Origin: Patescibacteria group bacterium
GTDB taxonomy: Bacteria > Patescibacteriota > WWE3 > UBA101185 > UBA10185
DNA length: 38,495 nucleotides
NCBI GenBank assembly: GCA_026004595.1
Contig: BPJL01000010.1
Span: 1-38,495 of the forward strand
Direction: 5' to 3'
Below the pieces are notes generated by a model that ran no database searches, had not been told where the DNA came from, and saw only the letters and a program-made list of their open reading frames with translations. Below, one piece after another: positions 2,687 through 38,495 of the stretch. The first letter of the stretch is position 1. Every line of letters begins with the position of its first letter. The position numbers were made by a program, and so were the translations under genes.

Positions 2687-2702
2687 AAATAGACATAGGT
2701 AT

Positions 2703-2731: not shown

Positions 2732-2916
2732 GGTGTTTTTTTTCTAATTTCTGACAAAAAAAACAAAGTGGCCGGCCAAAAAACTTGGTACTGTATATTA
2801 GTTGTTTTTTTGGTCATTGTCTTGAAGCATAGAGAACAAGTCTCGTTGCTCCATCCGCTAAATTTTGTTTGTTTTGTTACCGCCCCTTTGGGGGGGCGGT
2901 AACTGAAATTAGCCAT
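2728..2916 (-). CDS. Small hypothetical protein with CxxC
   Basis: ATG 2916 overlaps the upstream stop and follows GGAGG; CSLC motif. Confidence 0.4.
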   Translation of the reverse strand: MANFSYRPPKGAVTKQTKFSGWSNETCSLCFKTMTKKTTNIQYQVFWPATLFFLSEIRKKTP

Positions 2917-3444: not shown

Positions 3445-3462
3445 GTTTTTCACCTCCTTTCT

Positions 3463-4005
3463 TTATATATTCATACATTTTCCCGCTGTCCATCTTTTAA
3501 AAGTTTTATTGTCGTTTAGATACATCCGGTATGCATAATCTATGTTGGTTTGCCAATTGAAGGCTTCATCGTCTGTTAGCGGGTGGTATTTGTTATTGAT
3601 TTGAAATATGCCCCTGTCTCTGCTTCCGTCTTTGTTGACATTGACTGCGTAGGGGTCAAGATTGGGATTTTCACCTCCACATTGACCATCACCTCGAAGC
3701 AGAAGCATTGCTTTTTCATAATCATCTTTGAATTTTATTTGGATATAATCTTCTATTTCTTCTTTTTGTGTTTTCTGACGTTCTGTATTGGATTCTAACG
3801 GGTCTTGTTGTTTTTGATTGACCATCCCATTATCTTTTGGTTTTTTCGCGGTTTCTGATTGATTTGGTGAGGTTTCAACCTCACTATAATTTGCATATAT
3901 TTCTTCTGGGTGTTTCATCCTTTGAATATCCCACCCCCAAAAGGCTACTGTGATGAATATAGATATGATTATCGGTAGTTCTTTTTGTAGTTGTTGGTTA
4001 ATCAT
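3463..4005 (-). CDS. Membrane-anchored lytic transglycosylase (lysozyme-like/SLT)
   Basis: N-terminal hydrophobic helix; GEN...AVNVNKDGSRDRGIFQIN...NIDYAYRMY...W lysozyme-fold motifs. Confidence 0.8.
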   Translation of the reverse strand: MINQQLQKELPIIISIFITVAFWGWDIQRMKHPEEIYANYSEVETSPNQSETAKKPKDNGMVNQKQQDPLESNTERQKTQKEEIEDYIQIKFKDDYEKAMLLLRGDGQCGGENPNLDPYAVNVNKDGSRDRGIFQINNKYHPLTDDEAFNWQTNIDYAYRMYLNDNKTFKRWTAGKCMNI

Positions 4006-4012
4006 TAACTAT

Positions 4013-4090
4013 ATAATAATACATATTGTGATTTTGTCAAGTGGTAAAATTAGTGGTTGACAAATTATTAAGTGTATTGTATATATAATA
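4013..4090. promoter_or_regulatory. Divergent back-to-back sigma70 promoters
   Basis: TTGACA on - at 4040-4035 (16 bp to TATTAT) and TTGACA on + at 4057-4062 (17 bp to TATATA), between divergent operons. Confidence 0.6.
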
Positions 4091-4092
4091 CA

Positions 4093-4263
4093 ATGATTAC
4101 AAAAAGTAAAAAAATAAAAACGAGATTCAAAAGACTTTCAGTGATACTCTCAATTAGATTCACTCCACAAATTTATGAAACATTACAAAAAAAAGCAATT
4201 GAGCAACAGAGACCAATCTCCGAGATCGTAAGAGAAGCTGTAGAAAAATATATTCAAGTATGA
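4093..4263 (+). CDS. Ribbon-helix-helix (CopG/Arc-like) regulator
   Basis: LSIRFTPQIYETLQKKAIEQQRPISEIVREAVEKY RHH pattern. Confidence 0.8.
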   Translation: MITKSKKIKTRFKRLSVILSIRFTPQIYETLQKKAIEQQRPISEIVREAVEKYIQV

Positions 4264-4979
4264 AAAAGCAAAAAAAACAAACAACAGGATGGTGTTTAAT
4301 CCCGCCTTATATATTGGCAAGAGAAGACCTAACTATGAGTGAAAAGGTGGTTTATGGGCGCATTTTGGGCTTGGTTAACAAAAAGGGATACTGCTATGCA
4401 ACAAATAAATGGTTAGGTAAGCAAGTTGGTTTAGCCTCTGGGACTATAGCTAATATAGTATCCAAACTAAAGGATAAAAAGCTGGTTTATGTAGAAGTTA
4501 TCAGGGACCAAAACAATAAAGTAACAGAAAGACGCATTTTTGTACCTAGTTTCATTCCTGAGTGGGGAGGTATTCACTCAGGAGTGAATAGGGGTATTCA
4601 CTCAGAAGTGAAAGAGAGTAATAGAGATATAGAGGGTAGAAAAGAGTATATATATTATCAGCAGCAAGCTGCTGACGAAGATAAAAATTCTTTTAATAAT
4701 GTAAAAGGATTTTCTACCTTACGAGAATCTCTTTCTTCCATTGATCTCTCCAAAAAGACCTCTCATGGCGGAGCACACTACGAGTGGCAAGACCACGCAA
4801 TAAGAGCAGCTAAATTTCTTGGCTTTAAACCAACAAAAAGTTGGTTCAAACTTTTCCGTGAAGCATATAAAAAGGGACAAAAAGGACTCATTTTGTCAAC
4901 CTTTGCGACGGTTGCAGATGCTGCTAATGCAAATGATCCAGAGAGGTATTTTTATAAGGTTTTTAACTCAAAATCATGA
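4260..4979 (+). CDS. Phage replication initiator (N-terminal HTH, lambda O-like organisation)
   Basis: IPPYILAREDLTMSEKVVYGRI...GYCYATNKWLG HTH; internal iteron repeats. Confidence 0.8.
   Translation: MKKQKKQTTGWCLIPPYILAREDLTMSEKVVYGRILGLVNKKGYCYATNKWLGKQVGLASGTIANIVSKLKDKKLVYVEVIRDQNNKVTERRIFVPSFIPEWGGIHSGVNRGIHSEVKESNRDIEGRKEYIYYQQQAADEDKNSFNNVKGFSTLRESLSSIDLSKKTSHGGAHYEWQDHAIRAAKFLGFKPTKSWFKLFREAYKKGQKGLILSTFATVADAANANDPERYFYKVFNSKS
4551..4660. repeat. Iteron-like repeats, probable replication origin
   Basis: GGTATTCACTCAG(G/A)AGTGAA at 4569-4588 and 4593-4612, a degenerate copy at 4551-4564, then a purine/AT-rich tract. Confidence 0.7.
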
Positions 4980-5188
4980 CCAAAATAGAAGAAATAAAAC
5001 AAAAAATGAATAAACTAGTAAAAAAATGGCAAGGAAAGCCAGAAGCACCATTCATGTCCAAGGAATACATCGAAAGAAGAATGGACAGGATTTTATACCG
5101 AAAACTACTTGCGAAGCTAAATCAGTTAGAAAAACAAACAGAAATTATTGAAGAAGCCAAAAAGATTTTTGAGATAGGGGAGAAATGA
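4976..5188 (+). CDS. Hypothetical protein
   Basis: 70-aa ORF, ATGA coupling at both ends. Confidence 0.65.
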   Translation: MTKIEEIKQKMNKLVKKWQGKPEAPFMSKEYIERRMDRILYRKLLAKLNQLEKQTEIIEEAKKIFEIGEK

Positions 5189-5409
5189 AAATTTTTAACC
5201 GATTCAAAAAAAGAAAGAGACTATATACCGTTTTGCTCACTGAAGACCAGCTGAAATTTTTAATGAAATATTGTCCATCAGGAGGTTGGTTTGGGGAGTA
5301 TTGTAAAAACAGCGAACTTTTCAAGGATAGAGTCTGTAAACAAAATGGTGCTAAATATAAAGCGGGAGAGGTTTGCGTATGTTTTCAGAGACAAGAAAAC
5401 AACCAATAA
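5185..5409 (+). CDS. Hypothetical Cys-rich protein
   Basis: 74-aa ORF with several Cys, ATGA coupled. Confidence 0.55.
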   Translation: MKIFNRFKKRKRLYTVLLTEDQLKFLMKYCPSGGWFGEYCKNSELFKDRVCKQNGAKYKAGEVCVCFQRQENNQ

Positions 5410-5499
5410 ATATATGAAAAACTTTTTGGACAAAACATCAACAAAAATGAAAACAATAGTTATAAAAAACGAAATGGCAAATTTGATAAAACAAAACAT

Positions 5500-5577
5500 G
5501 CAAGTCCGATGATGTTTGCTTGGTTTGTTTGGGAAAAAGGGTTTAGGGGCGAGCCTGTTATCAGATGGTTAGATTAG
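5500..5577 (+). pseudogene. Orphan C-terminal fragment resembling phage DNA methyltransferase-like proteins
   Basis: Reads SPMMFAWFVWEKGFRGEPVIRWLD* with no recognisable N-terminal part. Confidence 0.45.
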
Positions 5578-5682
5578 AACATATTTTTTACCAAAAAAGA
5601 GGGTGAAATTATGTCAGATTTAATAGACAAAGAAATCTTGGAAGATATAGTTGGTTATACATAAAGAACTAAAGGAGGAAAA

Positions 5683-5922
5683 ATGAAATATAGCACAACT
5701 GATGGCAGAGAGTGGTTTAAATCAGACATGTGTTTTTGTTGTCGAGTGGATACCGCCGGGAATCACGAATTGAATTGTCCGAATAATTTTAGTAGGGAGA
5801 AAAATGAAAAGAAGGGGGGTGAAATTATGTCAGAAGGAGGAAAAATGAGCAAGAACAAAGCGGAGTTTAATTTTACCGTTTTTGTTTATGTAAATACAGC
5901 TCATATTCTTTATAAAACCTAA
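5683..5922 (+). CDS. Hypothetical protein (CxCC..H...C)
   Basis: RBS AAGGAGG; putative Zn-binding N-terminal half. Confidence 0.45.
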   Translation: MKYSTTDGREWFKSDMCFCCRVDTAGNHELNCPNNFSREKNEKKGGEIMSEGGKMSKNKAEFNFTVFVYVNTAHILYKT

Positions 5923-6379
5923 TCAGCCCTTTTATGTTTCTGTTTTTAACATCTTCTCTGATTTTTTTCAACTCTTCAGCCGTCCATTCCCTAAATTGAT
6001 TTTTAGCAAACAAGAGGTAGTCATATCTTTCAGGGTATTTAGCTTTGAACCACTCCATCGCTTCAAGTGGAGAATCGTGCCAAAACCAACGGTGGCAACG
6101 GGAATCCATCGGCAAAACATTTAAGAAGTCAAATCTCAAGTGGTCGCAACTCCCACGAGAGAGGACATGGGAACAGTCCATCTTTTCAAAATACTTACCG
6201 CAATAAGCACATGGTTGTCCTTCGGTTATCATTCGATTGAATTCAATTTGAATTTGTTTTTTGAGAATTTTGATGTCATTTTCAAAGTAAAGGGTTTTGT
6301 GTTCCTTTGAGCAGAAGTGTTTTTTACCCTTTTTGTAGGGACATTTTGAACGCTTGAGGCAGTAGGCACACTTTTTCAT
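5873..6379 (-). CDS. NinG/Rap-like HNH endonuclease with N-terminal Zn finger
   Basis: CAYC...FCS..H finger; PCAYCG...MDCSHVLSRG...LRFD..N....CH NinG pattern. Confidence 0.8.
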   Translation of the reverse strand: MKKCAYCLKRSKCPYKKGKKHFCSKEHKTLYFENDIKILKKQIQIEFNRMITEGQPCAYCGKYFEKMDCSHVLSRGSCDHLRFDFLNVLPMDSRCHRWFWHDSPLEAMEWFKAKYPERYDYLLFAKNQFREWTAEELKKIREDVKNRNIKGLIRFYKEYELYLHKQKR

Positions 6380-6666
6380 AGGCTTTCTCGTAATTTACTC
6401 CAGCTTATGTTTTTCCCAAACGGGAGCAAGTCCAAATCTGGATATTTCTTATAAAATAAAATTTCATCCTACAATTCGTCAACTTCAACATCTAGAAATT
6501 TAGCAATCATTTAATTCTTGTAAAGGTTTATCCATTTTTCTTAGTCTGCGACGCAATAAACACTTCAATGTAGCATTAGAGTCGCATAGATTGTGCCTTT
6601 TTCATGGTCTTTTTTCTTTCTTGCGACGCTGCTACGTTATTTATGGCTTTAGAATAAAAATACCAC

Positions 6667-6695
6667 TTGACAAAATGACTAATATATATTATGAT
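6667..6695 (+). promoter_or_regulatory. Sigma70 promoter, likely leaderless mRNA
   Basis: TTGACA-17-TATGAT, then 6 nt to ATG 6702. Confidence 0.7.
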
Positions 6696-6701
6696 TGAAT
6701 C

Positions 6702-7361
6702 ATGAAAACAAAATTGAAAAAAGCAGCAGAAAAATTGAATGCTGCGCTGAGTAAAAAAAGAAAAATAATTATCATAAACAAATGGGATCAATTATGGTCT
6801 GATCTAAGCTGCGGATCTTTGCCCGATCTTAAACCGCCCAGTTGGGAGGAGTTAGAAAGTGAAATATGGCATGAGCTAAAATCTGAATTTTTTTCAGAAA
6901 TAGAAAAAGAAATAGGACAAACAGCGTATATACAACTTGAAAGAGAATTTTTTTCACAATTATGTTGTGAAAAAGAATTGTGGTCAGAATTGAAAAAAGA
7001 ATTAGATTATGCATTAGAACCCGAAGATCCAGACGATATAGGGTCAGAAACCTGGAAATATTATGACAATGATTGGGTTCTGTTTGCGCTACAACGATAC
7101 CCCCACTTATCAGTATTCCAAAAAAACAAAGAAAAAGTTGAGGCTATCAGAGATATAGTTGAGGCTGGTAATGCTTATATTTGGCTCAGTTCGGAGAGAA
7201 TGTATCTTTTGCCGATGCCGGAAGAAATTCACAGAAATGACCAAAAAAAGCTCCATAATGAACAAGGTTATGCCCTGAGTTGGGCGGGTCAAAAAACTTA
7301 TTGGTTGAATGGAGTGAAATTAGAAAAAACCATCTGGGAAAAAATGAGGAGAAAAAATTAG
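6702..7361 (+). CDS. Hypothetical protein, DUF6745-like C-terminal domain
   Basis: KLHNEQGYALSWAGQKTYWLNGV motif preceded by L(W/F)S(E/Q)L repeats. Confidence 0.6.
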   Translation: MKTKLKKAAEKLNAALSKKRKIIIINKWDQLWSDLSCGSLPDLKPPSWEELESEIWHELKSEFFSEIEKEIGQTAYIQLEREFFSQLCCEKELWSELKKELDYALEPEDPDDIGSETWKYYDNDWVLFALQRYPHLSVFQKNKEKVEAIRDIVEAGNAYIWLSSERMYLLPMPEEIHRNDQKKLHNEQGYALSWAGQKTYWLNGVKLEKTIWEKMRRKN

Positions 7362-7445
7362 AAGCAATTAATAGGATGAGATTATGTATTGTCTCACTTC
7401 TTTGACCATCTTATTTGTGCGGCTTTTTTAGCCATTTTTTTGAGT

Positions 7446-7901
7446 TTATCTTTGTTTTTTTTTGGCATTGACTAAACCCGCTTTGCGGGCTTTTTCACGG
7501 CGGGATACTTCTAGCCAAGTATTCCATATCAAATCAAGAAGAATTAACATTATAGGTTGCCAAAATAGCCAACTAGTCAATGCACCAGTTGATAAAATGT
7601 AGCTTTTTTCTTTTGCTAATTCTTTAGTTGTCATTTTTTGAAATCTTTTTTTTAAAATCGGTAGGACTTTTTTTTTGATTTTTACAATGAACTTTTTTTT
7701 ACTTTTTTTGATTATTTCTTCTTTAATCTCTAACTTTTCGAGAGTGCTTAATTTATTCCACTCATGGTGTGGGATATCAGGAGGAATATAGTCGTCATCG
7801 CTGATTTTGTTTTCTTCCCTAATATATTTATAAAATTGTTCTTTGAATTCGGGGAATTTTTTGAGAAATTCTTTATTTTTTTGTATGTGTTGTATGATCA
7901 T
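7446..7901 (-). CDS. Hypothetical Lys-rich protein
   Basis: Likely start ATG 7901 (MIIQHIQK); the upstream extension in the track overlaps the 8027 gene. Confidence 0.55.
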   Translation of the reverse strand: MIIQHIQKNKEFLKKFPEFKEQFYKYIREENKISDDDYIPPDIPHHEWNKLSTLEKLEIKEEIIKKSKKKFIVKIKKKVLPILKKRFQKMTTKELAKEKSYILSTGALTSWLFWQPIMLILLDLIWNTWLEVSRREKARKAGLVNAKKKQR

Positions 7902-8026
7902 GGTTTTATAGTCTTGGGGCGAGCCGTATGCACCGGTAATTACTACTCCATACCAGCTCGAACAGAAACTGGGGCAACTTTTGATTTTCCTTGCCAATAA
8001 AAAGAAGAAAGGGGGTGGGTTTGTCG

Positions 8027-8326
8027 ATGCAACCAACCTATAAGGAGGAGTGGATTGTGAAAGTTGGCAAAGAGGCTTTTGTTCTTGACGAGAGGCAGAT
8101 TGTTGTCTTGAAGGAAGCAATGAAGACAAACAACAGGTGGGTAAGTTTTGAAAAATTTATTATTTCTATACCACATATTGAGTGTATTTATCTAAACAGA
8201 AGAGAAGTTGCAAACCAACTGCCTGAAGGCAAGAAAGAAGATGAGAACTTTAAGCCCATTCCATCCGAGAAGTGGAAGAAAATGAAGGAGGAAATTTACC
8301 AAAAAGCGGGAAGGAGTGTTGCTTAA
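8027..8326 (+). CDS. Hypothetical protein
   Basis: GGGGGTG RBS-like sequence, ATG 8027, 99 aa. Confidence 0.6.
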   Translation: MQPTYKEEWIVKVGKEAFVLDERQIVVLKEAMKTNNRWVSFEKFIISIPHIECIYLNRREVANQLPEGKKEDENFKPIPSEKWKKMKEEIYQKAGRSVA

Positions 8327-8545
8327 TCGTGGGGCTGTGCTTGAAAAAATAGAGGAATCAAAATGAAAAAACAAAATAAAGAGATATGAAAACTATGACA
8401 AAAAGCGATAGAACAAAGAGAACTTAAAATAGTTAAAGAAAAATTGGGTCTCATTAGGGCCTTTTTAGACTATTCTTAAGGTTTAAGACTATGAAAGGAG
8501 ATGTAGAACAGTTTAAACTTTTGCGTCCTCAATTAAGTAATTTTA

Positions 8546-8800
8546 ATGAAAACTAAATATCCATTAGTCTATCTTGAGTGGGAAGATGCCAATTCTATGT
8601 CTTCGTGGGAGACTAACGAGCAGATAGATAAATGGCTAAAAACGAATGAAGATTATGGGCAAGTAGAGCAAGTCGGTTGGCTCATTAGGGAAACTAAAAC
8701 TTGTATAATTCTTGCCTCTCGGCACGCACCAGAAAATGATTATCAAGATGAGCATTGGGGAAATTTGCAGAAAATTCCTAAAACTTGGATTATCAAATAG
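8546..8800 (+). CDS. Conserved phage hypothetical protein
   Basis: VYLEWEDA...VGWLIRE...IILAS...IPK pattern common near terminase genes. Confidence 0.65.
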   Translation: MKTKYPLVYLEWEDANSMSSWETNEQIDKWLKTNEDYGQVEQVGWLIRETKTCIILASRHAPENDYQDEHWGNLQKIPKTWIIK

Positions 8801-9187: not shown

Positions 9188-10008
9188 AGACAAAGCCCAA
9201 ACATATGTTAATTTTATCAAAGATAATTTTATGCTTGTTGCCAAAGATGGGACGGTTAAAAGATTTTATGATGACCAAAACCATTGGAGAATTCAAGAAG
9301 ATTTTATCCTAAACAAAGCGACAGGACGGGATGTAATTTTAAAATCAAGACAATTAGGTTTTTCATCCATCATTCTTGCCATTTTCACAACAGACTTTTT
9401 ACTCAAAGATAACTCCTATTCAATGGTAATAGCTGATAAATCAGATAATGCTGAGGATTTACTTTCAAGAGTAAAGTTTTATATCAAGTCATTTGAGGAA
9501 ATAAACCAAGTAAAACTAAACTTAAAATACAATTCAAAATATGAACTTTATAATGAACAGTTAAACTCTACTTATAAGATAGGAACCGCAGAGAACAAAG
9601 AGGTTGGAAGAAGTAAAAGTTTAACGGGACTTCATTTATCGGAATTTGCTTTCTATCAAGACCCTGAAGCAATCTTACGCTCTGCTTTACAGGCAGTGGT
9701 TCCGGACGGAAAAATATTTATTGAAACAACAGCCAACGGCTTCAACTTTTTCAAGACTTTTTGGGAAGAGTGTAAAAGAGGGGAGCGACCATTTAATCCT
9801 TTATTTTATGGTGCAAGTCAATTTTATTCATCCGAGTTTTTTGGAAAACAAAAAGAAGGAACTAAAAAATTACTACCCTCAAGAATATCCGGAAACGGAT
9901 ATTGAAGCATTTATTTCAAGTGGACAAAACTATTTTGACAAGCAGGCACTAAAATGGTATTTGGATAACATAAAAGAACCCATTAAAAATGATTTAATCT
10001 ATGTTTAA
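9174..10008 (+). CDS. terL: Terminase large subunit, ATPase domain (frameshift at T6, 9837-9842)
   Basis: Walker A ILKSRQLGFS, Walker B GLHLSEFAF, motif III IETTANG, QEYP in the shifted frame. Confidence 0.9.
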
Positions 10009-10645
10009 ACAATACCGACAAATAGAGCGAGGTGAGTTTATTGTTGTTGGTGTTGATACCGCATCAGGCGGTGGTGATTATACTGCCGCCCAGTTTTTAT
10101 CAAAAACAAAAGTAGATGTTCCTTTAGTTTATCATTCGCCGATAACTACTACCGAATTTACCAATCTTTTAGTGCCTGTTCTTGAAAAGATTTCAGATAC
10201 AACAGGAATAAAGCCAGTTGTTGCTTATGAGCGAAATAATGGCGGAGCATTTGAGATGGATAGGCTGGCGGCAATGAATAGGCTTAATAAATACGACTTA
10301 TTTAAGATGCCATCCTTTGGAAGAGAAAATCCGCCAGAGGCGGTTCAATACGGCTGGATAACTTCTACGGCAACCCGCCCCAAAATGCTTCAAGACCTGA
10401 AACAGGCAATAGATAACAAAATTCCAATTCTGTACGATAGTGCAACCATAAACGAGATGTATTCTTTTGTGGTTGTTCAAACATCATCAAGTTGGAAAGC
10501 ACAAGCCGATAAGGGGGCAAAAGATGATTTGGTTATGGCACTGGCGATTGCTTGGCAGTTGAATAACAACCTCGAAGAAAGAAGTTTGTCTCAATCTTAC
10601 CACCCTATCTATGCGGGTGAAAAGAAAAACTGGAGTTTAGTATGA
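10001..10645 (+). CDS. terL: Terminase large subunit, RNase H-like nuclease domain
   Basis: VVGVDTASGGGDYT, ERNNGG, KDDLVMALAIA. Confidence 0.9.
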   Translation: MFKQYRQIERGEFIVVGVDTASGGGDYTAAQFLSKTKVDVPLVYHSPITTTEFTNLLVPVLEKISDTTGIKPVVAYERNNGGAFEMDRLAAMNRLNKYDLFKMPSFGRENPPEAVQYGWITSTATRPKMLQDLKQAIDNKIPILYDSATINEMYSFVVVQTSSSWKAQADKGAKDDLVMALAIAWQLNNNLEERSLSQSYHPIYAGEKKNWSLV

Positions 10646-14422: not shown

Positions 14423-14490
14423 GTAGTCTGATGCTCCGACTATAAACCGAGCACGATTTCTAAATCCTTGATGGGTTTAGAAAGGGGGTG
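14423..14490 (+). ncRNA. Structured 5' leader of capsid mRNA (H-type pseudoknot plus hairpin)
   Basis: TAGTC/GACTA stem; loop TGCTC pairs with GAGCA at 14449-14453; 11-bp hairpin 14457-14483 abuts the RBS. Confidence 0.45.
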
Positions 14491-14496
14491 ATTAAG

Positions 14497-15426
14497 ATGG
14501 CTTGGGGAAAAACAACTTATCAGGCACCAAACGAAATGAGAGAGTCCCTTTTAGATATTATCAGGGACATATCTCCTAATGAGGACAATTATTTTGTCTC
14601 AAACCTTGATAAGGGAGCTCCTGCTCTTCAAACCTATCACGAGTGGAATATCTTTCACGAGGATAGGGTGTCTTCTGTTACAGCAAACACTGAAGGAGCA
14701 GATACATCATATCCTGACCTTCAGGCTGAAAGCCGAGCTGGCAACTACACAGTTATTGTGGATTCTCCAGTCAAACTTTCAAGAACTAAAGCATCTATTG
14801 CGATGGTAACAAAGCAAGATGCTTTGGCTGTAGAGAAGGAAAGAGCCTTGAGGAGACTCAAGAACAAAATGGAGTTTCTTCTTATCAACGGCTCATTAGC
14901 AGCTGGTGCAACAAACTCCGCTCGTGGTATGGCGGGAATTGATGCCTTCATTACATCAAATGTTACCGCCTATTCCTCTGGACAATCATTCACAGAAGCA
15001 ATCTTGAATGATATGGCAAAGACAAGCTGGGACAATGTTGGTTCAAGCTATGTGGCTTCCACACTGGTTGCTCCTGCTGTTATTAAGCAAAGAGTAGCAA
15101 CCTTTGGAACCAACCTTACCCGCAATGTTAGAGCCGAAGACAAGAGGCTTATCAACGAGGTTCGTGTGTTTGACACCGACTTGGGTGTAACGGTTAAAAT
15201 CCTCGCTCACAAAGATGTCAGGAAAGCTGCAGGAACAGTTACAGCATTGCTCATTAACGAAGACCTGCACGAAATGTCCTTCTTGGTCAATACTGGTGAA
15301 CCTCACTGGGAAGACCGAGCAAAGGCTGGCGACTATGTGGCTGGGGTATATATTACCGAGTTCACTCACGTTGCGTATAACGAAAAGGCTGATGTAAAAC
15401 GTACCGGATTCTCGGCTTCGTTGTAG
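14497..15426 (+). CDS. Major capsid protein (SU10/DUF5309-like, HK97 fold)
   Basis: RESLLDII..ISP, HEW, NYT.I, RGMAGI motifs; about 309 aa; follows the scaffold; GGGGGTG RBS. Confidence 0.85.
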   Translation: MAWGKTTYQAPNEMRESLLDIIRDISPNEDNYFVSNLDKGAPALQTYHEWNIFHEDRVSSVTANTEGADTSYPDLQAESRAGNYTVIVDSPVKLSRTKASIAMVTKQDALAVEKERALRRLKNKMEFLLINGSLAAGATNSARGMAGIDAFITSNVTAYSSGQSFTEAILNDMAKTSWDNVGSSYVASTLVAPAVIKQRVATFGTNLTRNVRAEDKRLINEVRVFDTDLGVTVKILAHKDVRKAAGTVTALLINEDLHEMSFLVNTGEPHWEDRAKAGDYVAGVYITEFTHVAYNEKADVKRTGFSASL

Positions 15427-15443
15427 TTTTAGCCTAAGTAGTT

Positions 15444-15491
15444 AGAAGAAGGCTGGCGAAAGGTTTATCCGAGTAGCCAGCTTTCTTTTTT
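15444..15491 (+). terminator. Intrinsic terminator after capsid gene
   Basis: AAGGCTGGC/GCCAGCTTT stem followed by CTTTTTT. Confidence 0.75.
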
Positions 15492-15516
15492 GACTAGAAG
15501 TGCTAAAATATGCTTG

Positions 15517-15912
15517 ATGGGAAAAATAAACCTTCAAGATTATGAAGTAATACCTCCTCACCTATCTACTCTTACCTCTTATATCACTAACCTTTGGGAA
15601 GGATTAGGAAGGCCTACCGATCCTCTGTCCTCTCAAGGACAAAAGCTTGTCAATTTTATTTTTGACGCCTACAAGGAACTTTACCCCGAAGAATACAAGG
15701 CTTGGCGGGAAATGATTAAAGAATATCAATCAGCCGAAAAATCAATTCACGAGCAAGTCAAGTACCACACAGGCAGAAGTCTTATATCATATCCCACGTG
15801 GGTTTATCATATCTTGCGAAAAGTCTTTCCAGGCTTTAACTTTCACAAACGAGAGAACGCAATGAAAATGGCAAAAACCTTTAGACAATTTCAGGTGGCA
15901 AATAAAGTATAG
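15517..15912 (+). CDS. Hypothetical protein
   Basis: 131 aa from ATG 15517, preceded by extended -10 TGcTAAAAT. Confidence 0.7.
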   Translation: MGKINLQDYEVIPPHLSTLTSYITNLWEGLGRPTDPLSSQGQKLVNFIFDAYKELYPEEYKAWREMIKEYQSAEKSIHEQVKYHTGRSLISYPTWVYHILRKVFPGFNFHKRENAMKMAKTFRQFQVANKV

Positions 15913-15924
15913 GAGGTGGTTAAT

Positions 15925-16056
15925 ATGTCCAAAATCTTATTTGTGTTAAATATTGTGCTTTTAATAGTCGTTTCTTTGTTGCTTGTTAAGGCTAGATGTC
16001 TAGAGAAGGAAGTAAAATCGGCTCAATGTATTCCCTGTCATATATGGTTAAGATAG
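15925..16056 (+). CDS. 43-aa single-pass membrane protein with CxxCH
   Basis: RBS AGGAGGTG; MSKILFVLNIVLLIVVSLLLVKARCLEKEVKSAQCIPCHIWLR*. Confidence 0.6.
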   Translation: MSKILFVLNIVLLIVVSLLLVKARCLEKEVKSAQCIPCHIWLR

Positions 16057-17807
16057 CTTTATCTATTATCACTAAAGGTGATGAGGAGTTAGACAACCTT
16101 AAAAAGTGTGTCGCCTCATTTTTGCCTGCTGTTGACGGGGTGTTTATTACCGCCAATGGTAAGAAGACAAAAGAGACCGAGAAGTGGTGTAAAGAAAATG
16201 GCTTTAATTACTCTTATCTTGCTTGGAACGATGATTTTTCAGCCCAAAGAAATTTTAACTTCTCACAGATTAAGGGATTTGACTGGATTTTGTGGGCGGA
16301 TAGTGACGATATTTTAGTCGGTGCAGACAAATTAAGAGATGTTGCTGATATTTCTTACAAGAACGGTTTTGATTGTGTTTTCTTTACCTATTATTACGGT
16401 TGTCTTTTTGATGGCGAACCCAGTTTTGAGAATATAAAACAAGTTGACTTAATCCAAAAGCGGGAAAGACTTTTAAAACCAGGTGTTTTTGTTTGGAAGG
16501 GAAGACTGCACGAAACACCAGTTCCTGTAAATAATTATCAGCCAAAATACACTTATGTCCCTTATTCTGAAGAATTCCCCATTGTCTGGGTGCACACCGA
16601 AGCTGATAGAAATCCCAATGCCCCTAAAAACATAGAACGAATGGAGAGAAATAAAAGAATTCTTGAGCTTCAGTTGAAAGAGGAAAGAGAAAAAGGAACA
16701 GCAGACCCACGAACCTTACTTTATCTGATGAAAATCTATGTAGAGCTTCCCGAACAGGAATTGTGGCAAAAATGTATTGAGATGGGGTATGAGTATTTAT
16801 CAAAATCGGGTTGGGACGAAGAGCGAGCCATCGCTTATCAGTTAATAAGCAAGTGTTATAGCCAGTTGGGAGACAACAGGAAAGCCGAAGAGGCAATAAG
16901 AAACGCCATCAAAGAATATCCTTACGAACCCTTGCTTTATCTTTACTTGGCAAAATACCTCTTTAATCAAAACAAATACAACGAGATGGAACACTGGCTT
17001 AAACTGGCGGTCTCAATGGAAGAGAAGGACACAACCCAAATGAATAATGAGATGGAAAAGAAAATCCTAGCCGCAGAACTCACTTTTAAGCTGGAATTTT
17101 ATGTTAAGCGAGATGTCAGAAAAGCATATCGGGCAATAAAATACCTCTACGATATAGCTCAAACCGAAGAGGCGTTGGTGCTCTTAAAAGAGGTTGAAAG
17201 ATTAAAAGAATTAGACGAGGCTTGTGAGGACACACACAAACTAATTAAATACTTTGAAAAAGAGGATAAAGAAGAAAGGGTTATCCCCTTAATTCAGTCT
17301 TTGCCTCTTGAAATCTCCAATCTTGAGTTTGCCTATCACTACTTTAACAAATACAAAAAACCAAGAGTTTGGAAGAAAAATGAGATTTGCTACTATGCTT
17401 ATCTTGGTCCGCACTTTGAGAAGTGGTCTCCTTTATCATTAAAAACAGGAATTGGCGGCTCTGAAACTGCGGTTATCAGACTTTCTCAAGAATGGGCAAA
17501 GAAAGGTTATACAGTAGTCGTCTATGCCGATGTCTTAAAAGAGGGCATTTATGATAATGTTATCTGGCTTCCTGCTTACAAGTTTAATCCTCGTGATAGA
17601 TTTAATGTCTTTATTCAATGGCGGTCTTCTTCTTTGGCAGGAAAAATCAAAGCCAAGAAGTTTTTAGTTGACTTGCACGACTTATATTCTCCGCAGGCTA
17701 TTGACTGGAATAAAATAGACTTTGCTATGGTTAAAAGTAAGTATCAAAGAAACCTAGCAAAAGATATTCCTGATAGTAAATTTAGGATAATTTCAAATGG
17801 CATATGA
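16044..17807 (+). CDS. GT2 glycosyltransferase + TPR repeats + N-terminal half of a GT4 (GT-B) domain
   Basis: WNDDFSAQRNF, WILWADSDD, WKGRLHE; TPR helices; GIGGSETAVI...ISNGI. Confidence 0.85.
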   Translation: MVKIALSIITKGDEELDNLKKCVASFLPAVDGVFITANGKKTKETEKWCKENGFNYSYLAWNDDFSAQRNFNFSQIKGFDWILWADSDDILVGADKLRDVADISYKNGFDCVFFTYYYGCLFDGEPSFENIKQVDLIQKRERLLKPGVFVWKGRLHETPVPVNNYQPKYTYVPYSEEFPIVWVHTEADRNPNAPKNIERMERNKRILELQLKEEREKGTADPRTLLYLMKIYVELPEQELWQKCIEMGYEYLSKSGWDEERAIAYQLISKCYSQLGDNRKAEEAIRNAIKEYPYEPLLYLYLAKYLFNQNKYNEMEHWLKLAVSMEEKDTTQMNNEMEKKILAAELTFKLEFYVKRDVRKAYRAIKYLYDIAQTEEALVLLKEVERLKELDEACEDTHKLIKYFEKEDKEERVIPLIQSLPLEISNLEFAYHYFNKYKKPRVWKKNEICYYAYLGPHFEKWSPLSLKTGIGGSETAVIRLSQEWAKKGYTVVVYADVLKEGIYDNVIWLPAYKFNPRDRFNVFIQWRSSSLAGKIKAKKFLVDLHDLYSPQAIDWNKIDFAMVKSKYQRNLAKDIPDSKFRIISNGI

Positions 17808-34953: not shown

Positions 34954-35839
34954 GTGTTAAAAATTATCAAACCAAGCCCGAACCGCATAACCCAAGGGTA
35001 TTCTAACACCCATAAAGGTTATGATTTTTCAGGACGGGGCGATAAAAACGCATATTGTGTTGTGTATGGCAAAGTTGTTCAATCTAAGAATTCAGAAACA
35101 AGGAATTGGCAGGCTTTCAAAAATTCAGACCCGTATAAAAAAAACGAGAAATGGCAAGCTTATCACGGAGGATTACGGAAATTATTGCAAAATCAGGGGA
35201 GAAATTGAAGGCAAAAATTATTATTTTTTATACGCACATCTTGAAGCGGGCAGCGTCTTGCCTGTCGGGTCTGAAGTCAAGGTGGGTCAAGTAATTGGTC
35301 AAATTGGCAACACTGGCAACAGCACAGCGCCCCACCTACATTTTGAAGTCAGAGACGAAAACAATAACAACATACCAGTTGAATTTGTTGATGATATGCC
35401 AAAAAATCAAGAATTAGTATCAAAAGAACAAATCATCATAGACGCTTACAAAGCAGAAACTGGAGAGTTCCCTACCGACGATGAAAAGAAATGGAGACTT
35501 CAACAAAACCTCAACACAATTCAGCTAATCGAGAGTCTTCATCAGGATTCTAGGTTTTATGAAAAGTGGGTAAAACCCAACATCCCCGACAAAGATATAA
35601 GCTGGCATGAAACTGCTCTTTTGTATCAAGAATCTTTTGAGAAGATTAAAGAACTTTTGGGTGCTGCTCCTGCAGAAAACACAGAAGAAGTAATCGGCAG
35701 AATTAAAAAACTCATAGAAAGAAACAAAGAATTAGAAAAACTTCAAGAGCCTAAAACGATATACAAATATGAGAATAAAGACTATGTTCCGTTGATAAGG
35801 CTATCCAATATCATTGTTGCCATTCAAAAGGAGACATAG
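34954..35839 (+). CDS. M23 peptidase endolysin (frameshift at A8, 35137-35144)
   Basis: HKGYDF (HxxxD) in the first ORF; [22 protein letters not shown] in the second. Confidence 0.85.
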
Positions 35840-35853
35840 CTGTTTTAACAAAA

Positions 35854-36030
35854 ATGATTAGGTATATTATTTTGACTATAAAACACCTTAAAATGGCTCT
35901 GGTGAGCTTACAAAGCATATCTCAAAAAATAATGTGGTTTTTCATGGATAAATGCACAAAATGTGGGGGAGAATTGTATATCTGGAGTGCAAAAAAGGCT
36001 CATTGCATAAAATGCGGAGCTAAAAACTAA
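35854..36030 (+). CDS. Small Zn-ribbon protein
   Basis: Own translation ...DKCTKCGGELYIWSAKKAHCIKCGAKN*. Confidence 0.55.
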   Translation: MIRYIILTIKHLKMALVSLQSISQKIMWFFMDKCTKCGGELYIWSAKKAHCIKCGAKN

Positions 36031-36047
36031 AAGGAGGTGATAAAAAC

Positions 36048-36254
36048 ATGAACTGGAATTCTTTGCCAAAATGGGTGCGGGTCATTCCTTATGTTGCTGC
36101 ATCTGGTGCATTAACAGCAATTATTGACCATCTTTCACACATTCAAGTAAACGATGCTGTGTTGATGGCAGTTATCAATGTTTTGATTGTGATGCTAAAA
36201 GAAATAAAAATCCCAGGAGGTGAGAAAAATGAAAGAAAGACCAGAAGACCATAA
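36048..36254 (+). CDS. Putative holin
   Basis: RBS AAAGGAGGTGA; two hydrophobic helices and a basic tail. Confidence 0.6.
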   Translation: MNWNSLPKWVRVIPYVAASGALTAIIDHLSHIQVNDAVLMAVINVLIVMLKEIKIPGGEKNERKTRRP

Positions 36255-36393
36255 ATTAGAAGAATACAATGAAAACGACTTGAGTTATCTTGGATATTTG
36301 TCTGAAGAGGAGATTCTGAAGATGACACCAGAGGAATTATCTGAGTTGGCAGACCTGGTTGCCATGATAGACAGAAAACTTCTAGGTTCATGA
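36229..36393 (+). CDS. Acidic 54-aa protein
   Basis: RBS AGGAGGTGA; MKERPEDHKLEEY...DRKLLGS*; ATGA overlap with the next gene. Confidence 0.6.
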   Translation: MKERPEDHKLEEYNENDLSYLGYLSEEEILKMTPEELSELADLVAMIDRKLLGS

Positions 36394-37334
36394 AAGAAAG
36401 AAGAATAAAAGCGGTAGATAAGAAAGATACTAATGTGTCTTTTAATCAGTGGCTTGAAGAGCTTAAACACAGACAAGATTTTGAACATAAAATAGACCCA
36501 ACCCAGAAAGAAGCAACAGTATATGTGTACGGGGAATATCCACACATACCGATTGGTATTTCTTTCTTAACTGATGTTCATTTTGGCAATTATGGTGTTG
36601 ATTATCATAGCCTAGATAAGCACCTTACGATTATTAAAGAAACACCTAACATGTTCATGTTTATGGGCGGGGACATGATTGACGCTTTTTCACCAACTAA
36701 ACACCCCACAGGAATGATGAATGACATCATGCCCCCAGATGAGCAGGCAGATATTATGCTTGGGGTTCTTGAGGATTTTGACCAACAGTCTAAGTTAGTT
36801 GGAGTGCTATTAGGGAATCATGATCATTTCATAAATGAGGCAGGATATAGATTTGAAAAATTTTTATCCAGAATAAAAGCCCCAGTATATCAGGGGGCGG
36901 GTAATCTGAACATTCTGGTAGGAGAAGGCGGTGAAAAATACAGGATTTTTGTCAGCCATACCCACTGGGGGTCGTCAAAAATCAACATCACAAATGCGGC
37001 AAAAAGAGCGTTGCAATTCACTAGCCCCGATGCAGACATGGCGTTTTTGGGTCATACTCATCAGGCTTCTTGTGAGATTTATCACATAGGTGGTAAACAC
37101 AAAATAGCCCTTGTGGGAGGCACATACAAAGTTGATGATAAATGGCTACAAAAATGGGGGAGTTTAGAAAAACCACTGGGTGGGTTTACAGTTTTCTTTT
37201 ATCCAGATAAACATCACATGGAAGTCGTCAGATACCCAGACATTGCTAGAGATGTAATACTAAGTATGATAAAATATGATAATAGACCAGACCCGTATAC
37301 TGAGCTAATCAAAAAACTCAAAAAATCCAAATGA
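36390..37334 (+). CDS. Calcineurin-like metallophosphoesterase
   Basis: DVHFG, GGDMID, GNHD, H, GHTH motifs. Confidence 0.9.
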   Translation: MKERRIKAVDKKDTNVSFNQWLEELKHRQDFEHKIDPTQKEATVYVYGEYPHIPIGISFLTDVHFGNYGVDYHSLDKHLTIIKETPNMFMFMGGDMIDAFSPTKHPTGMMNDIMPPDEQADIMLGVLEDFDQQSKLVGVLLGNHDHFINEAGYRFEKFLSRIKAPVYQGAGNLNILVGEGGEKYRIFVSHTHWGSSKINITNAAKRALQFTSPDADMAFLGHTHQASCEIYHIGGKHKIALVGGTYKVDDKWLQKWGSLEKPLGGFTVFFYPDKHHMEVVRYPDIARDVILSMIKYDNRPDPYTELIKKLKKSK

Positions 37335-37613
37335 GAAAAGAAAGAATCTACACCAACACCAACCCCAAAAACTTCACTGACGCAATAGATGAAAAAATAG
37401 ACCGCGAGAATATGCTCAGGCAGTTGTTACAAGAATTACCGGTTCAACAAAAACGCGTTGTTGTTGTTACGATTAAGCGGGTGGACAGATAAAGAGATAC
37501 AAGAAGAATACGATATTGTCAATCCTTCGTATTATTTATACATAGTCAAAAAAAAGGGTAAGAAACTTGCCGAAGATACAGGATATATAGAAAATAATCT
37601 TGACAAAAAGTAA
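37331..37613 (+). CDS. Sigma70 region 4-like HTH protein (frameshift near 37450)
   Basis: Removing one base gives LLQELPVQQNALLLLRLSGWTDKEIQEEYDIVNPSYILY...; ATGA-coupled start. Confidence 0.55.
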
Positions 37614-37627
37614 AAACTTGTTATACT
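37600..37627 (+). promoter_or_regulatory. Strong sigma70 promoter
   Basis: TTGACA-16-TATACT with extended TG. Confidence 0.75.
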
Positions 37628-37647
37628 AATATAAAAGTATAAATTGC

Positions 37648-37755
37648 ATGTACACCACATGCGGGTGTATATCCAATTTCTACTTTTGTAGATTAAATAA
37701 TAATATAGACATCCTCCGGGGAGAGGTGAAACCTTGGGTTATTCTACCTCTCCCC
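37648..37755 (+). CRISPR. Solitary type V-A (Cas12a) repeat unit / single-crRNA gene
   Basis: AATTTCTACTTTTGTAGAT at 37675-37693, 24-nt segment 37694-37717, flanking hairpins 37648-37672 and 37718-37755. Confidence 0.85.
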
Positions 37756-37767
37756 ACTCACCAAAAA

Positions 37768-38082
37768 ATGAAAGAAATCAAAGAAACCCAACCACTACGA
37801 GACGGGGATAATCTTGTTTATGTTTTTGACAAAAAAACTTTTGAATCCTCTATTAAAGATAAAGTCGGGTTAATGTTAGTAAGAGAAGAGATTGTCAGAC
37901 ATATGGCTACGATTCTGCCCATATTTAAGCCACATTTAGTTGATAAAGATTCTTATGATATTGTAATTAGAGTTCCAGATATAGGATACAGAATAAGCGG
38001 GTGGTACTTCACAGATGATGCAGAAATACAAAAACTCCAACAAGAGGAAGACTTGTATTTTATGACTATAGAAAAAGCTTGA
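37768..38082 (+). CDS. Hypothetical 104-aa protein
   Basis: Likely start ATG 37768; the track's longer start runs through the structured RNA. Confidence 0.65.
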   Translation: MKEIKETQPLRDGDNLVYVFDKKTFESSIKDKVGLMLVREEIVRHMATILPIFKPHLVDKDSYDIVIRVPDIGYRISGWYFTDDAEIQKLQQEEDLYFMTIEKA

Positions 38083-38085
38083 AAA

Positions 38086-38495
38086 ATGAAAAAAGAACTT
38101 CTGGCTATACCTGTTGCTCTGGGTGTTCTCTCCGCTGTTTTATCCAATTCAGACAATTCTTGTTCTCAAGTTAGATTCTTAGCTAGTAACAATAATCCAA
38201 GACCATCAAAACCCCTTATTAACCCAATAATCCAAGTAGAAGAAACTAGAGATGTATACAGAAACGGGCGGTGGGAAGTAGAAACCAGAATTGTATCCAA
38301 GGGTGTATTATATCCACCATATAGACGATTAGACCCGAATGTATGGGATGGTCATGACTTGGCTGTATGCATGCACGAAGAAGGAGGGGCAACGGTAATA
38401 GACAGAAACGGGAGGACATTGAATGTGCCGGTCAGAATGGCGCATCATATATATGACTATAATCGTGAATATCACATTATTAGGTTTTATGTAGT
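38086..38495 (+). CDS. Secreted/membrane-anchored hypothetical protein, 3'-partial
   Basis: MKKELLAIPVALGVLSAVLS signal-like N-terminus; open to the window end. Confidence 0.65.
   Translation, partial: MKKELLAIPVALGVLSAVLSNSDNSCSQVRFLASNNNPRPSKPLINPIIQVEETRDVYRNGRWEVETRIVSKGVLYPPYRRLDPNVWDGHDLAVCMHEEGGATVIDRNGRTLNVPVRMAHHIYDYNREYHIIRFYV

Follow-up and report, generated by a model that had tools for sequence, protein, structure and literature searches.

A phage binned with a CPR-like bacterium carries a short RNA gene that probably encodes a crRNA-like anti-CRISPR RNA of the Racr/Cracr class, with a predicted activity against type V-A systems. Elements of this kind are already known from the Racr and Cracr RNAs. 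The window, i.e. the whole stretch of DNA that we analyzed (38,495 nucleotides), is a complete 38.5-kb tailed-phage contig. The promoter, leader hairpin, Cas12a handle, 24-nt guide and 3' hairpin described in the initial annotation were all recovered on the forward strand (Table 1). The origin of the repeat, the promoter, the structured flanks, the phage context, the accessory location, the presence of V-A systems in the phylum, the recurrence of the design and the literature all fit this reading.

Table 1. Coordinates of the RNA element and of the adjacent genes within the window
Feature	Position	Strand	Basis or remark
Calcineurin-like metallophosphatase	36390..37334	+	PF00149; phrog_7339 'DNA repair exonuclease', E 4e-30
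Sigma-70-type promoter	37600..37627	+	Sequence; 11/12 score
TTGACA	37600-37605	+	Sequence
TATACT	37622-37627	+	16 nt after TTGACA; TG before it (extended -10)
Predicted transcription start	~37634-37636	+	Inferred from promoter
Leader with hairpin	37634..37674	+	Hairpin at 37648-37672
Leader hairpin ATGTACACC/GGTGTATAT	37648-37672	+	9 bp, including one G.T
Repeat-derived leader end GGTGTATATCC (11 nt)	37664-37674	+	In-register match to G420:C12 repeat
Cas12a (type V-A) 5' handle AATTTCTACTTTTGTAGAT	37675..37693	+	19/19 identity
Spacer-like guide TAAATAATAATATAGACATCCTCC, 24 nt	37694..37717	+	Sequence
3' hairpin	37718..37756	+	Perfect 10-bp GC-rich stem, 18-nt loop
3' hairpin stem arms GGGGAGAGGT and ACCTCTCCCC	37718-37727; 37747-37756	+	Sequence
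Orphan gene, 104 aa	37768..38082	+	ORF from ATG 37768; first gene downstream

Phage setting and architecture of the element

The contig encodes an SU10-type major capsid protein (E 2e-49), tail functions, an endolysin-type peptidase and a methylase, and is circularly permuted relative to a 38.8-kb relative in IMG/VR. Since the genome is circularly permuted, the end of the contig does not mark a junction with host DNA, and the earlier concern that the element might lie on the host side of a prophage boundary falls away: it sits inside the variable block of a whole phage (33000-38495 plus 1-8800). The metallophosphatase gene marks the phage accessory region. Its 314-aa product has a 29% identical copy on C9, the contig of a second, related phage in the same bin, and no close relatives in IMG/VR; with a cutoff of E 1e-10, none of 133 other genomes of the class had a match, so that the copy on C9 is the sole one outside the window. 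The RNA element is absent from C9 and from all five related IMG/VR records (six related phages), as expected of an accessory counter-defence gene. We dropped the idea that it had been inserted into a conserved junction between a promoter and its gene, as the C9 promoter aligned poorly and the downstream genes were unrelated. On C9, a promoter that looks similar to that of the element is directly followed by a gene.

The promoter lies upstream of the handle at a distance of 47 nt and scores highest among the 11 promoter-like sites detected in a scan of positions 35800-38495. Over the whole window, sites scoring at least 11/12 numbered five on the forward and two on the reverse strand, compared with 0.77 per strand in shuffled sequences. 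The other promoters of the window have an ATG within ~7-12 nt, and the 140-nt structured leader found here is therefore exceptional. For the 134-nt transcript that begins at the predicted start, the folding energy is -43.6 kcal/mol (z = -5.5), and none of 200 shuffles was equally stable. Two stable hairpins bracket precisely the handle and 24 nt, and neither recurs in the bin or in any fetched locus. The Rfam search returned no match at the gathering score in the window, and nine weak unrelated matches around the element at E up to 10.

According to the folding predictions, the leader hairpin can be extended by pairing between AAAGUAUAAAUUG and CAAUUUCUACUUU, and this pairing masks the handle in its 5' half; this possible occlusion may count against an active RNA. 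Release of the handle from the leader is predicted to cost 1.8-5.2 kcal/mol, varying with the start site. For transcripts that begin at or after 37636 the probability of the handle stem is at least 0.5. With a start at 37634 or earlier, half of the handle is predicted to be taken up in pairing with the leader; in the processed RNA the stem is predicted to form.

The 3' hairpin is followed by ACTCACCAAAAAATG and not by a U-tract, and it is missing among the terminator-like sites in the scan of 35800-38495. Because it has no U-tract, transcription probably continues into the next gene, and the RNA may be just the 5' UTR of that gene. A further point against an RNA gene is the possible coding overlap, as the gene-caller version of the downstream orphan is a 144-aa frame that starts from ATG 37648 and reads through the element. 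The ATG at 37768 has the context aaaaATGaaa, which resembles neighbouring gene starts. The orphan has no Pfam, PHROG or atlas match, and its 144-aa call found only itself among 5.8 billion proteins. The neighbours are family-less orphans that Pfam, protein and atlas searches did not recognise as acr or aca, and they are uninformative about the function of the element. Among public sequencing runs, part of the stretch was found in one DNA run labelled as a hot springs metagenome (X1), whose contigs span 36400-37636 and end before the handle, and in no RNA run.

Repeat origin and type V-A systems in the phylum

The handle 19-mer has a single copy in the window at up to three mismatches (0.04 expected; any match in 4 of 100 shuffles), and the pattern TCTAC-N3-5-GTAGAT has no copy beyond this one in the whole 1.04-Mb bin. 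No second repeat was detected in the window or the bin, and the guide sequence occurs once. The same 19-mer forms the repeats of arrays adjoining cas12a genes in the same phylum. When the repeat was compared with arrays, as the initial annotation had proposed, 28 of 30 nt of the element proved to match the first (leader-proximal) repeat of a V-A array in genome G420 (contig C12) of this phylum, with GGTGTATAT identical and in register. In addition, ATCC plus the handle is common to the element and the repeat of genome G312. Taken alone, an exact 19-mer could conceivably arise a single time at random, given how much sequence was scanned; since the 11 nt upstream also belong to the 28/30 match, a chance origin is excluded, and the promoter and structured flanks likewise rule it out. 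Judged from these sequence matches, the element was derived from a type V-A repeat.

The possibility that the element is the eroded end of an ordinary array was rejected, with one handle in the contig and bin together, flanks made up of phage genes, and neither a second repeat nor a cas gene on the contig. We also considered a fragment of a host V-A array, comprising its first repeat and one spacer, that was gained by recombination and is now inert, serving solely as the 5' UTR or 5' coding end of the orphan gene. The leader-proximal position of the closest array repeat agrees with such a relic, as do the frame from ATG 37648, the missing terminator, the lack of the element in sister phages and a bin without Cas12a. 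However, relics decay and this handle is intact at 19 of 19 positions; it directly follows a strong promoter, and unique stable hairpins delimit exactly the handle and 24 nt behind an exceptionally long structured leader. Together with the gene-start context of ATG 37768, these features make an inert relic very unlikely.

The binned host has a CPR-like genome of ~1 Mb (bin 93.8% complete), in which no Cas12a was detected by a search method validated on array-bearing genomes. It encodes a type II system with a Cas9 of 1668 aa, Cas1, Cas2 and 78 repeats. None of its 77 Cas9 spacers matches this phage (C10), C9 or their relatives, so that nothing but binning links the phage to this host. The handle pattern is present in 20 of 401 genomes of the phylum, and the TIGR04330 model identified Cas12a in all five array-bearing genomes tested. 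The handle is absent from all 40 nearest relatives of the bin, and the bin's own family includes one genome with the handle, with a TGTT loop. Both the Cas12a-free bin and the rarity of V-A systems among its close kin count against an anti-Cas12a function.

One of 123 V-A spacers, from G312, matches a phage of this family over 24 of 26 nt, and none of the reversed-spacer controls came nearer than four mismatches. This match points to a possible exposure of these phages to Cas12a, with the reservation that ACAA occupies the TTTV position, and the expected PAM is thus missing. Compared with the bin, 128 V-A spacers from eight genomes gave partial matches of 13-19 nt and nothing more. G420 also has a solitary handle beside cas12a (on contig C69), identical to that of the phage. 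In the cas12a promoter region, TTTG is followed by a 12-nt match to the seed of the guide behind this solitary handle. We regard the unit as a CreR-like, putatively self-regulating repeat.

Guide targets and relation to known RNAs

Window and bin searches bear out the earlier observation that the window holds no second repeat, no cas gene and no target of the guide. Within the bin, including C9, nothing came closer to the guide than five mismatches. The five related IMG/VR records contained one 18-mer match with three mismatches (reversed control 2), and a guide 20-mer was absent from IMG/VR. Altogether, 79 loci combine TTTV with 15 nt of the guide; the best of them, in a giant-virus MAG, matches at 21 of 24 positions, which is at chance level. 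The handle followed by a 15-nt seed had zero occurrences in IMG/VR. The metagenome and genome collections were scanned for handle plus seed alone. The handle with the same 9-nt seed was recovered at 23 loci (three in IMG/VR, four in species genomes and 16 in JGI metagenomes), of which 21 were unrelated palindromes and two were ordinary array spacers; none was a CreR or Cracr.

Searches for the seed next to TTTV in the bin, in viruses and at Cas12a loci, which the initial annotation had suggested as a way to find the target, revealed none. No TTTV with at least 9 nt of seed was present at any cas12a promoter in the 81.8 kb of Cas12a loci from eight genomes, and the bin had no such site, as compared with 1.54 under the null. 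Three sites with TTTV and a 10-nt seed were found in five V-A genomes, none of them at a cas locus (reversed control 2). Two weak matches were observed. In G312, GTTA plus a 9-nt seed coincides with the -10 box of a promoter for a small RNA, which lies upstream of the cas12a ATG by ~170 nt; the small-RNA-like element there has no Rfam family. In G278, TTTC plus a 9-nt seed (17/24) lies ~1 kb past the array of that genome. Both are at chance level (~0.1 expected).

These results bear on two roles in which the guide would have a target. A Cracr-type repressor would pair its PAM-proximal 9-12 nt next to TTTV in the promoter of cas12a or another defence gene of the true host, and Cas12a would then bind without cutting and silence its own gene, copying the host CreR. 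The architecture, in its repeat-like and spacer-like units, is the same as that of CracrVA1 as described in the available text of the preprint (bioRxiv 10.1101/2024.10.29.618823), the AT-rich guide resembles promoter sequence, and G420 provides a CreR-like element with an identical handle; the weak seed matches in G312 and G278 would also point in this direction. Against it stand the chance level of those two matches, the palindromes and array spacers that account for all 23 same-seed handles, the empty cas12a promoters, the lack of seed sites in the bin and the near-control frequency of 10-nt sites in V-A genomes. We consider this role unlikely, although worth keeping in view.

The second role is that of a working single-spacer crRNA, a mini-array cut down to one repeat, through which the phage would use the host Cas12a against a rival phage or plasmid. 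A full-length 24-nt guide behind a perfect handle would be suited to this, and in the available text of the preprint a Cracr-type scaffold cuts DNA when given a full guide match (bioRxiv 10.1101/2024.10.29.618823). A potential rival, the related phage C9, shares the bin, and viral mini-arrays with V-A repeats were found by sequence search (L013; G158/L034). However, no protospacer was detected in the bin with C9, in the five related records or in IMG/VR, where matches stayed at chance level, and the role is accordingly rather improbable. Viral mini-arrays contain two repeats or more, and their spacers match related viruses; those described by Faure and by Medvedeva in 2019 are reportedly used between competing viruses. 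The element shares with them a CRISPR repeat on a virus without cas genes of its own; it differs by its single repeat and by a guide that had no match to a related or competing virus in the searches run.

Two published groups of RNAs come closer. RacrVA1-3 inhibit MbCas12a, as stated in the accessible part of the report (PMC10651486, Camara-Wilpert et al., Nature 2023). By their description there, the element resembles them in being virus-borne, in lying outside a CRISPR-cas locus, in mimicking a solitary V-A repeat in both sequence and hairpin, and in its expected action, a Cas12a sequestration that is predicted for the phage element. Unlike RacrVA1-3 as described, it has no recognisable acr gene adjacent and a neatly delimited 24-nt guide-like part. 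Racrs often occur together with acr genes, a feature that supports membership of the class and does not define it. CracrVA1, from an uncultured phage, consists of one repeat-like and one spacer-like sequence and a terminator; in the available preprint text, Cas12a processes it to a 19-nt handle and a 21-nt guide, and it prevails over crRNAs in competition (bioRxiv 10.1101/2024.10.29.618823, Liu et al.). As far as that text describes CracrVA1, the element is like it in the type of carrier, in having a promoter of its own and a location outside CRISPR-cas loci, and in its parts: an intact V-A handle within a single repeat-like unit, one stretch resembling a spacer, with an AT-rich promoter-like guide, and a hairpin on the 3' side. 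In contrast to CracrVA1 as described, its 3' hairpin has no U-tract and a 41-nt structured leader precedes the handle. It also departs from Cracr in the test that defines them in this text, as in the loci searched at least 9 PAM-proximal nt of the guide were neither shared with a CreR nor matched to a cas promoter, including that of cas12a. The available preprint text names three phyla, none of which is that of the host.

In the preprint, CreR is a host crRNA-like autoregulator of cas12a. The CreR-like element of G420 shares with the phage element its identical 19-nt handle, its solitary state and a guide of similar length. They differ in that CreR adjoins cas12a and matches its promoter, while the phage-borne element has another guide and no cas gene nearby. 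The single-repeat design recurs in IMG/VR, where 17 distinct loci have one exact copy of the 19-mer. In four of these 17, a T-tailed hairpin follows, with a distance of 23 to 46 nt between the handle and the beginning of the terminator stem; a second repeat is present in one. These distances, and the 21-nt mature guide of CracrVA1, bear on the suggestion of the initial annotation that the 3' hairpin may set the guide length.

Proposed action and significance

By the published rule, as given in the accessible preprint text, an RNA without a match of at least 9 nt to CreR or a cas promoter is 'likely Racr' (bioRxiv 10.1101/2024.10.29.618823). The element is best read as a decoy because no such match was found. 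We infer that it is transcribed, bound and processed by Cas12a, and inhibitory. The RNA driven by the strong constitutive-type promoter would begin with a leader hairpin and continue through a perfect Cas12a handle and a 24-nt pseudo-spacer to a stable hairpin on the 3' side. In a Cas12a-bearing host, the nuclease would bind the handle and remove the leader by a cut just 5' of AAUUUCUAC, and host RNases would shorten the 3' side towards the hairpin or the protein. The product would be a crRNA look-alike of 40-45 nt that occupies Cas12a instead of immune crRNAs. The core idea of the initial annotation, a solitary repeat built to be loaded by Cas12a, is retained, as it fits the tests and matches Racr and Cracr RNAs as described in the available sources. 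In contrast, none of the roles it proposed (decoy, guide against a host locus, weapon against a rival) was confirmed: no target was found, and the binned host has Cas9 and not Cas12a.

A different use of the guide is suggested by its first 17 nt, which are the reverse complement of GTCTATATTATTATTTA, a sequence like the 5' part of a V-A repeat. Their inverted-repeat score was reached by none of 201 array spacers. Among composition-matched shuffles, 125 of 5000 scored as high (p ~0.025 after composition control), as did 10 of 5000 17-mers of the window. The guide can also pair with its own repeat-derived flank, in an alternative fold predicted at 2.8 kcal/mol above the minimum. The cognate repeat pattern GTCTA-N3-5-ATTATTTAATTTCTAC had 0 occurrences in IMG/VR, and genome G346 itself was the sole match among the 26 genomes of its family. 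Rather than a plain decoy, the element might combine an 'anti-repeat' with a Cas12a-responsive 5' UTR of the downstream orphans. As an anti-repeat, guide nt 1-17 would complement the 17-nt 5' part of the V-A repeat (GTCTA...ATTTA), and the RNA would pair with each repeat of a host pre-crRNA in a tracrRNA-like manner, blocking its processing or exposing it to RNase III. As a UTR, Cas12a would cut and stay bound at the 5' end of the orphan mRNA, where the lack of a terminator after the element would retain it, coupling expression to the presence of Cas12a. We rate this combination as highly improbable.

If the predicted decoy is active, it would extend RNA anti-CRISPRs to phages of ultra-small CPR/Patescibacteria-like bacteria. 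For these uncultured bacteria, sequence is the sole source of knowledge on conflicts between phage and host. With an active decoy, phages would also prove to be armed against a CRISPR type that is missing in the co-binned host, and this mismatch, if true, bears on both host range and the trust placed in binning. Promoter, leader hairpin, handle, guide and 3' hairpin together form a compact unit, a natural single-guide design for Cas12a. The published picture of Racr and Cracr RNAs is unchanged in its basics by this element. On the host side, the CreR-like candidate autoregulator of G420 suggests that self-repression of cas12a is widespread.

Anatomy and origin of the repeat unit

We read positions 37000-38495 of the phage contig, and the unit described in the initial annotation, a solitary Cas12a repeat with its own promoter, guide and protective hairpins, is correct base for base. 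The handle 19-mer has a single copy in the window at up to three mismatches (0.04 matches expected), its core occurs once in the whole 1.04-Mb bin, and neither hairpin of the element has another copy in the bin or in all fetched loci. The promoter score (11/12) is the highest among sites in 35800-38495; seven promoter-like sites of such strength occur in the window, and shuffled sequences give 0.77 per strand.

Features of the element and of the phage contig that carries it
Feature	Position	Strand	Details
SU10-type major capsid protein	14488-15426		E 1.8e-49
Virion structural protein
Minor tail protein
M23 peptidase			endolysin-like
HNH nuclease
C5 DNA methylase
Metallophosphatase	36390-37334
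Promoter -35	37600-37605	+	TTGACA; sequence reading
Promoter -10	37622-37627	+	TATACT, 16 nt after TTGACA, TG just before; sequence reading
Leader hairpin	37648-37672	+	ATGTACACC/GGTGTATAT; sequence reading
Cas12a handle	37675-37693	+	AATTTCTACTTTTGTAGAT; sequence reading
Guide	37694-37717	+	TAAATAATAATATAGACATCCTCC, 24 nt; sequence reading
3' hairpin	37718-37756	+	perfect 10-bp stem GGGGAGAGGT...ACCTCTCCCC; sequence reading
Segment after 3' hairpin		+	ACTCACCAAAAA, then ATG 37768

The chance of an exact handle 19-mer, estimated from base frequencies, is about 2e-6 per window, so that one chance match is conceivable when a few hundred thousand windows are scanned. However, the proposed comparison of the repeat with CRISPR arrays extended the likeness upstream of the handle: GGTGTATAT is in register with the leader-proximal repeat of the type V-A array of phylum genome G420 (GGTTAGGTGTATATTA followed by the handle), with 28 of 30 positions identical. 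In genome G312 the repeat ends in ACATCC followed by the handle, and ATCC is common to this repeat and the window. Judged by this upstream flank, which sets a chance origin aside, the element is a derivative of a type V-A (Cas12a) repeat.

Predicted RNA and phage setting

The predicted 134-nt transcript has a folding energy of -43.6 kcal/mol (z = -5.5), far more structure than in shuffled sequences. With a start at 37632-37634, folding extends the leader hairpin, AAAGUAUAAAUUG pairs with CAAUUUCUACUUU and half of the handle is occluded, at a cost of 2.8-5.2 kcal/mol for freeing it. For starts at or beyond 37636, the handle stem is predicted to form with a probability of 0.5 or more, stacked on the leader hairpin. 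When the leader is removed, only the handle and 3' hairpins remain as predicted structures, leaving the guide single-stranded. No U-tract follows the 3' hairpin, which was not scored as a terminator in the terminator scan; transcription from the element probably runs on into the orphan gene at 37768. A gene caller chose an open frame of 144 aa from ATG 37648 that crosses the element, which may thus overlap coding sequence; ATG 37768 is the preferred start, because its aaaaATGaaa context is the same as at neighbouring starts.

The window is a complete contig (C10) of the bin, and it encodes virion and lysis-type proteins (see table). Contig C9 of the same bin, nearly equal in size (38,621 bp), represents a related phage that is circularly permuted relative to C10 and syntenic with 9195-32774 at 52-76% amino-acid identity (block means). 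The 214-aa product of 10001-10645 has counterparts with 79-93% identity at 13 IMG/VR loci; in the best of these records (G510; 38,833 bp, 91% complete) the sequence runs collinearly with 8800-32942. The ends of G510 map within a continuous stretch of C10 (12077/12081), which shows circular permutation. This comparison, together with the location of the element inside a variable phage block (33000-38495 plus 1-8800), removes the earlier caveat that the unit might lie on the host side of a prophage boundary. The variable block has no DNA similarity in any of five related records, and the Cas12a handle is absent from C9 and all five; two of these carry unrelated TCTAC...GTAGA palindromes with other loops.

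Two overlapping ORFs of 53 and 51 aa (37331-37613) lie in different frames, with their junction at a run of GTTGTTGTTGTT (37461-37472). On visual reading they resemble a single helix-turn-helix protein that a frameshift has split; Pfam gave no match for either. Contigs of X1, a public DNA run labelled hot springs metagenome, break exactly at 37458/37459.

Guide searches and possible mode of action

All searches for a target of the guide were negative or at chance level. In the bin, the full guide had no match under five mismatches, the sole exact 15-nt match lacked a PAM (TACC), and TTTV plus a seed of at least 9 nt gave 0 sites versus 1.54 for shuffled seeds. The best matches in the V-A loci (81.8 kb, 8 genomes; about 0.1 chance matches expected by estimate) were TTTC plus 9 nt (17/24) in G278, away from cas12a, and GTTA plus 9 nt in G312, where the match falls on the -10 box of a small structured RNA that lies some 170 nt upstream of the cas12a ATG. 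Five V-A genomes contained three sites with TTTV plus 10 nt, versus two for the reversed control, and none of the three was near cas genes. The handle plus a 9-nt seed was found at 3 loci in IMG/VR, 4 in species genomes and 16 in JGI metagenomes; these 23 loci comprise 21 unrelated palindromes and 2 ordinary array spacers. IMG/VR had 0 matches to the guide 20-mer and 79 loci with TTTV plus 15 nt; the best of these, a 21/24 match in a giant-virus MAG, is at the level predicted by chance. The five related phage records gave one 18-mer match at up to three mismatches, versus two for the control.

Conversely, among 123 distinct V-A spacers compared with the phage family, one from the G312 array stands out. 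It matches a relative in IMG/VR (L085, 6093-6118, minus strand) at 24 of 26 nt, and reversed-spacer controls never came closer than four mismatches; in place of the expected TTTV PAM, the flank of the site reads ACAA. This match is suggestive of past contact between the V-A system and the phage family, and of no more.

Nucleotides 1-17 of the guide (37694-37710) are the reverse complement of GTCTATATTATTATTTA, which shares its length (17 nt), GTCTA start and ATTTA end with the 5' part of phylum V-A repeats. Scores as high as that of the guide were reached by 0 of 201 array spacers, 10 of 5000 random window 17-mers and 125 of 5000 composition-matched shuffles, and by these counts the inverted-repeat likeness is marginal. 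No cognate repeat was found: the repeat pattern is absent from IMG/VR and, within 26 genomes of the family of G346, matched G346 alone. A further possible partner of the guide is the upstream flank of the unit itself, GGGUGUAUA. An 'anti-repeat' role of the guide is therefore speculative, and targeting of array DNA is unlikely, since the guide site in an array would be flanked by AAAT and not TTTV.

According to a 2023 report in Nature (PMC10651486), viruses carry solitary repeat units that act as RNA anti-CRISPRs (Racrs), and RacrVA1-3 inhibit Moraxella bovoculi Cas12a. A preprint (10.1101/2024.10.29.618823) describes CracrVA1 of an uncultured phage, a single repeat-like sequence with a spacer-like sequence and terminator, which Cas12a processes into a 19-nt handle and a 21-nt guide. 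Its 10-nt seed with TTTA matches the cas12a promoter, and CracrVA1 has two effects, repression of cas12a and competition that displaces crRNAs; units that lack such a match are there considered likely Racrs, and 219 candidates are directed at hosts in three phyla. The design is recurrent, as the same 19-mer stands in a single exact copy at 17 distinct IMG/VR loci; at four (L003, L005, L010, L017) a T-tailed hairpin starts 23-46 nt downstream, and one of the 17 has a second repeat. The present element is best explained as an RNA anti-CRISPR by which the phage would counter type V-A systems, a reading that we consider moderately probable from sequence. A decoy mode is favoured over promoter repression only because no guide target was found. 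This kind of element is already known; unusual here are the structured leader, the missing U-tract, the position in the 5' UTR of an orphan gene, the possible inverted-repeat guide and a co-binned host with Cas9. Full-text literature searches yielded no relevant report on a Cas12a anti-CRISPR in Patescibacteria or on a solitary repeat in a CPR phage, and published supplementary candidate lists may contain related entries.

CRISPR systems of the bin and the phylum

The bin looks like a CPR/Patescibacteria member, given its 1.04-Mb size (sampled genomes of the phylum span about 0.4-2.1 Mb) and the missing ribosomal protein uL30, an absence that is a CPR hallmark; uL30 was not found in the bin, and 13 of 14 control genomes score. 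A model search for Cas12a in the bin was negative, which is meaningful because the same model is positive in 5/5 phylum genomes that bear arrays. Instead, the bin contains a type II locus (L179, C15:110-11778) with Cas9 (1668 aa), Cas1, Cas2 and 78 repeats of about 37 nt, and none of its 77 spacers matches C10, C9 or relatives. Within the bin, C12:1669-1691 is matched by one of the spacers (23/23 nt), which means either self-targeting or that C12 is a mobile element. The guide scan also produced repeated near-matches in a long tandem array on C7 (about 14500-17400, period about 289 nt), probably a gene for a repeat-domain protein.

The 40 nearest relatives of the bin lack the handle pattern, which occurs in 20 of 401 sampled phylum genomes, the bin included. 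Among them, G290 (of the same family, with a TGTT loop), G152, G278, G312, G346 and G395 have arrays, and several others have single copies. Exact solitary 19-nt handles lie at G061:C1:623183, G293:C30:6008 and G139:C1:99279; Cas12a was not found in these three genomes (86-100% complete), and the handles may be further mobile-element units of the same kind. Type V-A systems require no tracrRNA. In G312, a highly structured RNA of about 120 nt (L074, C13:4595-4722, minus strand) with promoter TTGCAT-17-TATAAA and a clean terminator lies directly upstream of the cas12a promoter; Rfam gave no family for this RNA (best E 0.36). The G420 genome has a solitary handle (L078, C69:4795-5060) about 215 nt upstream of cas12a in divergent orientation, with a guide that matches two sites next to TTTG: one over a 12-nt seed in the intergenic cas12a promoter region, the other over a 10-nt seed within cas12a. 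This unit looks like CreR, a host crRNA-like cas12a autoregulator, and bears the CreR signature as given in 10.1101/2024.10.29.618823. A V-A mini-array in G158 (L034, C8, about 5190-5300) has one complete repeat, followed by a spacer of 26 nt and a second, degenerate repeat, AATTTCTGCTTTTTAGAT. Two IMG/VR contigs (L006/L018) carry solitary handles whose upstream flank is homologous to that of the mini-array, which is thus probably a viral element within a genome bin.
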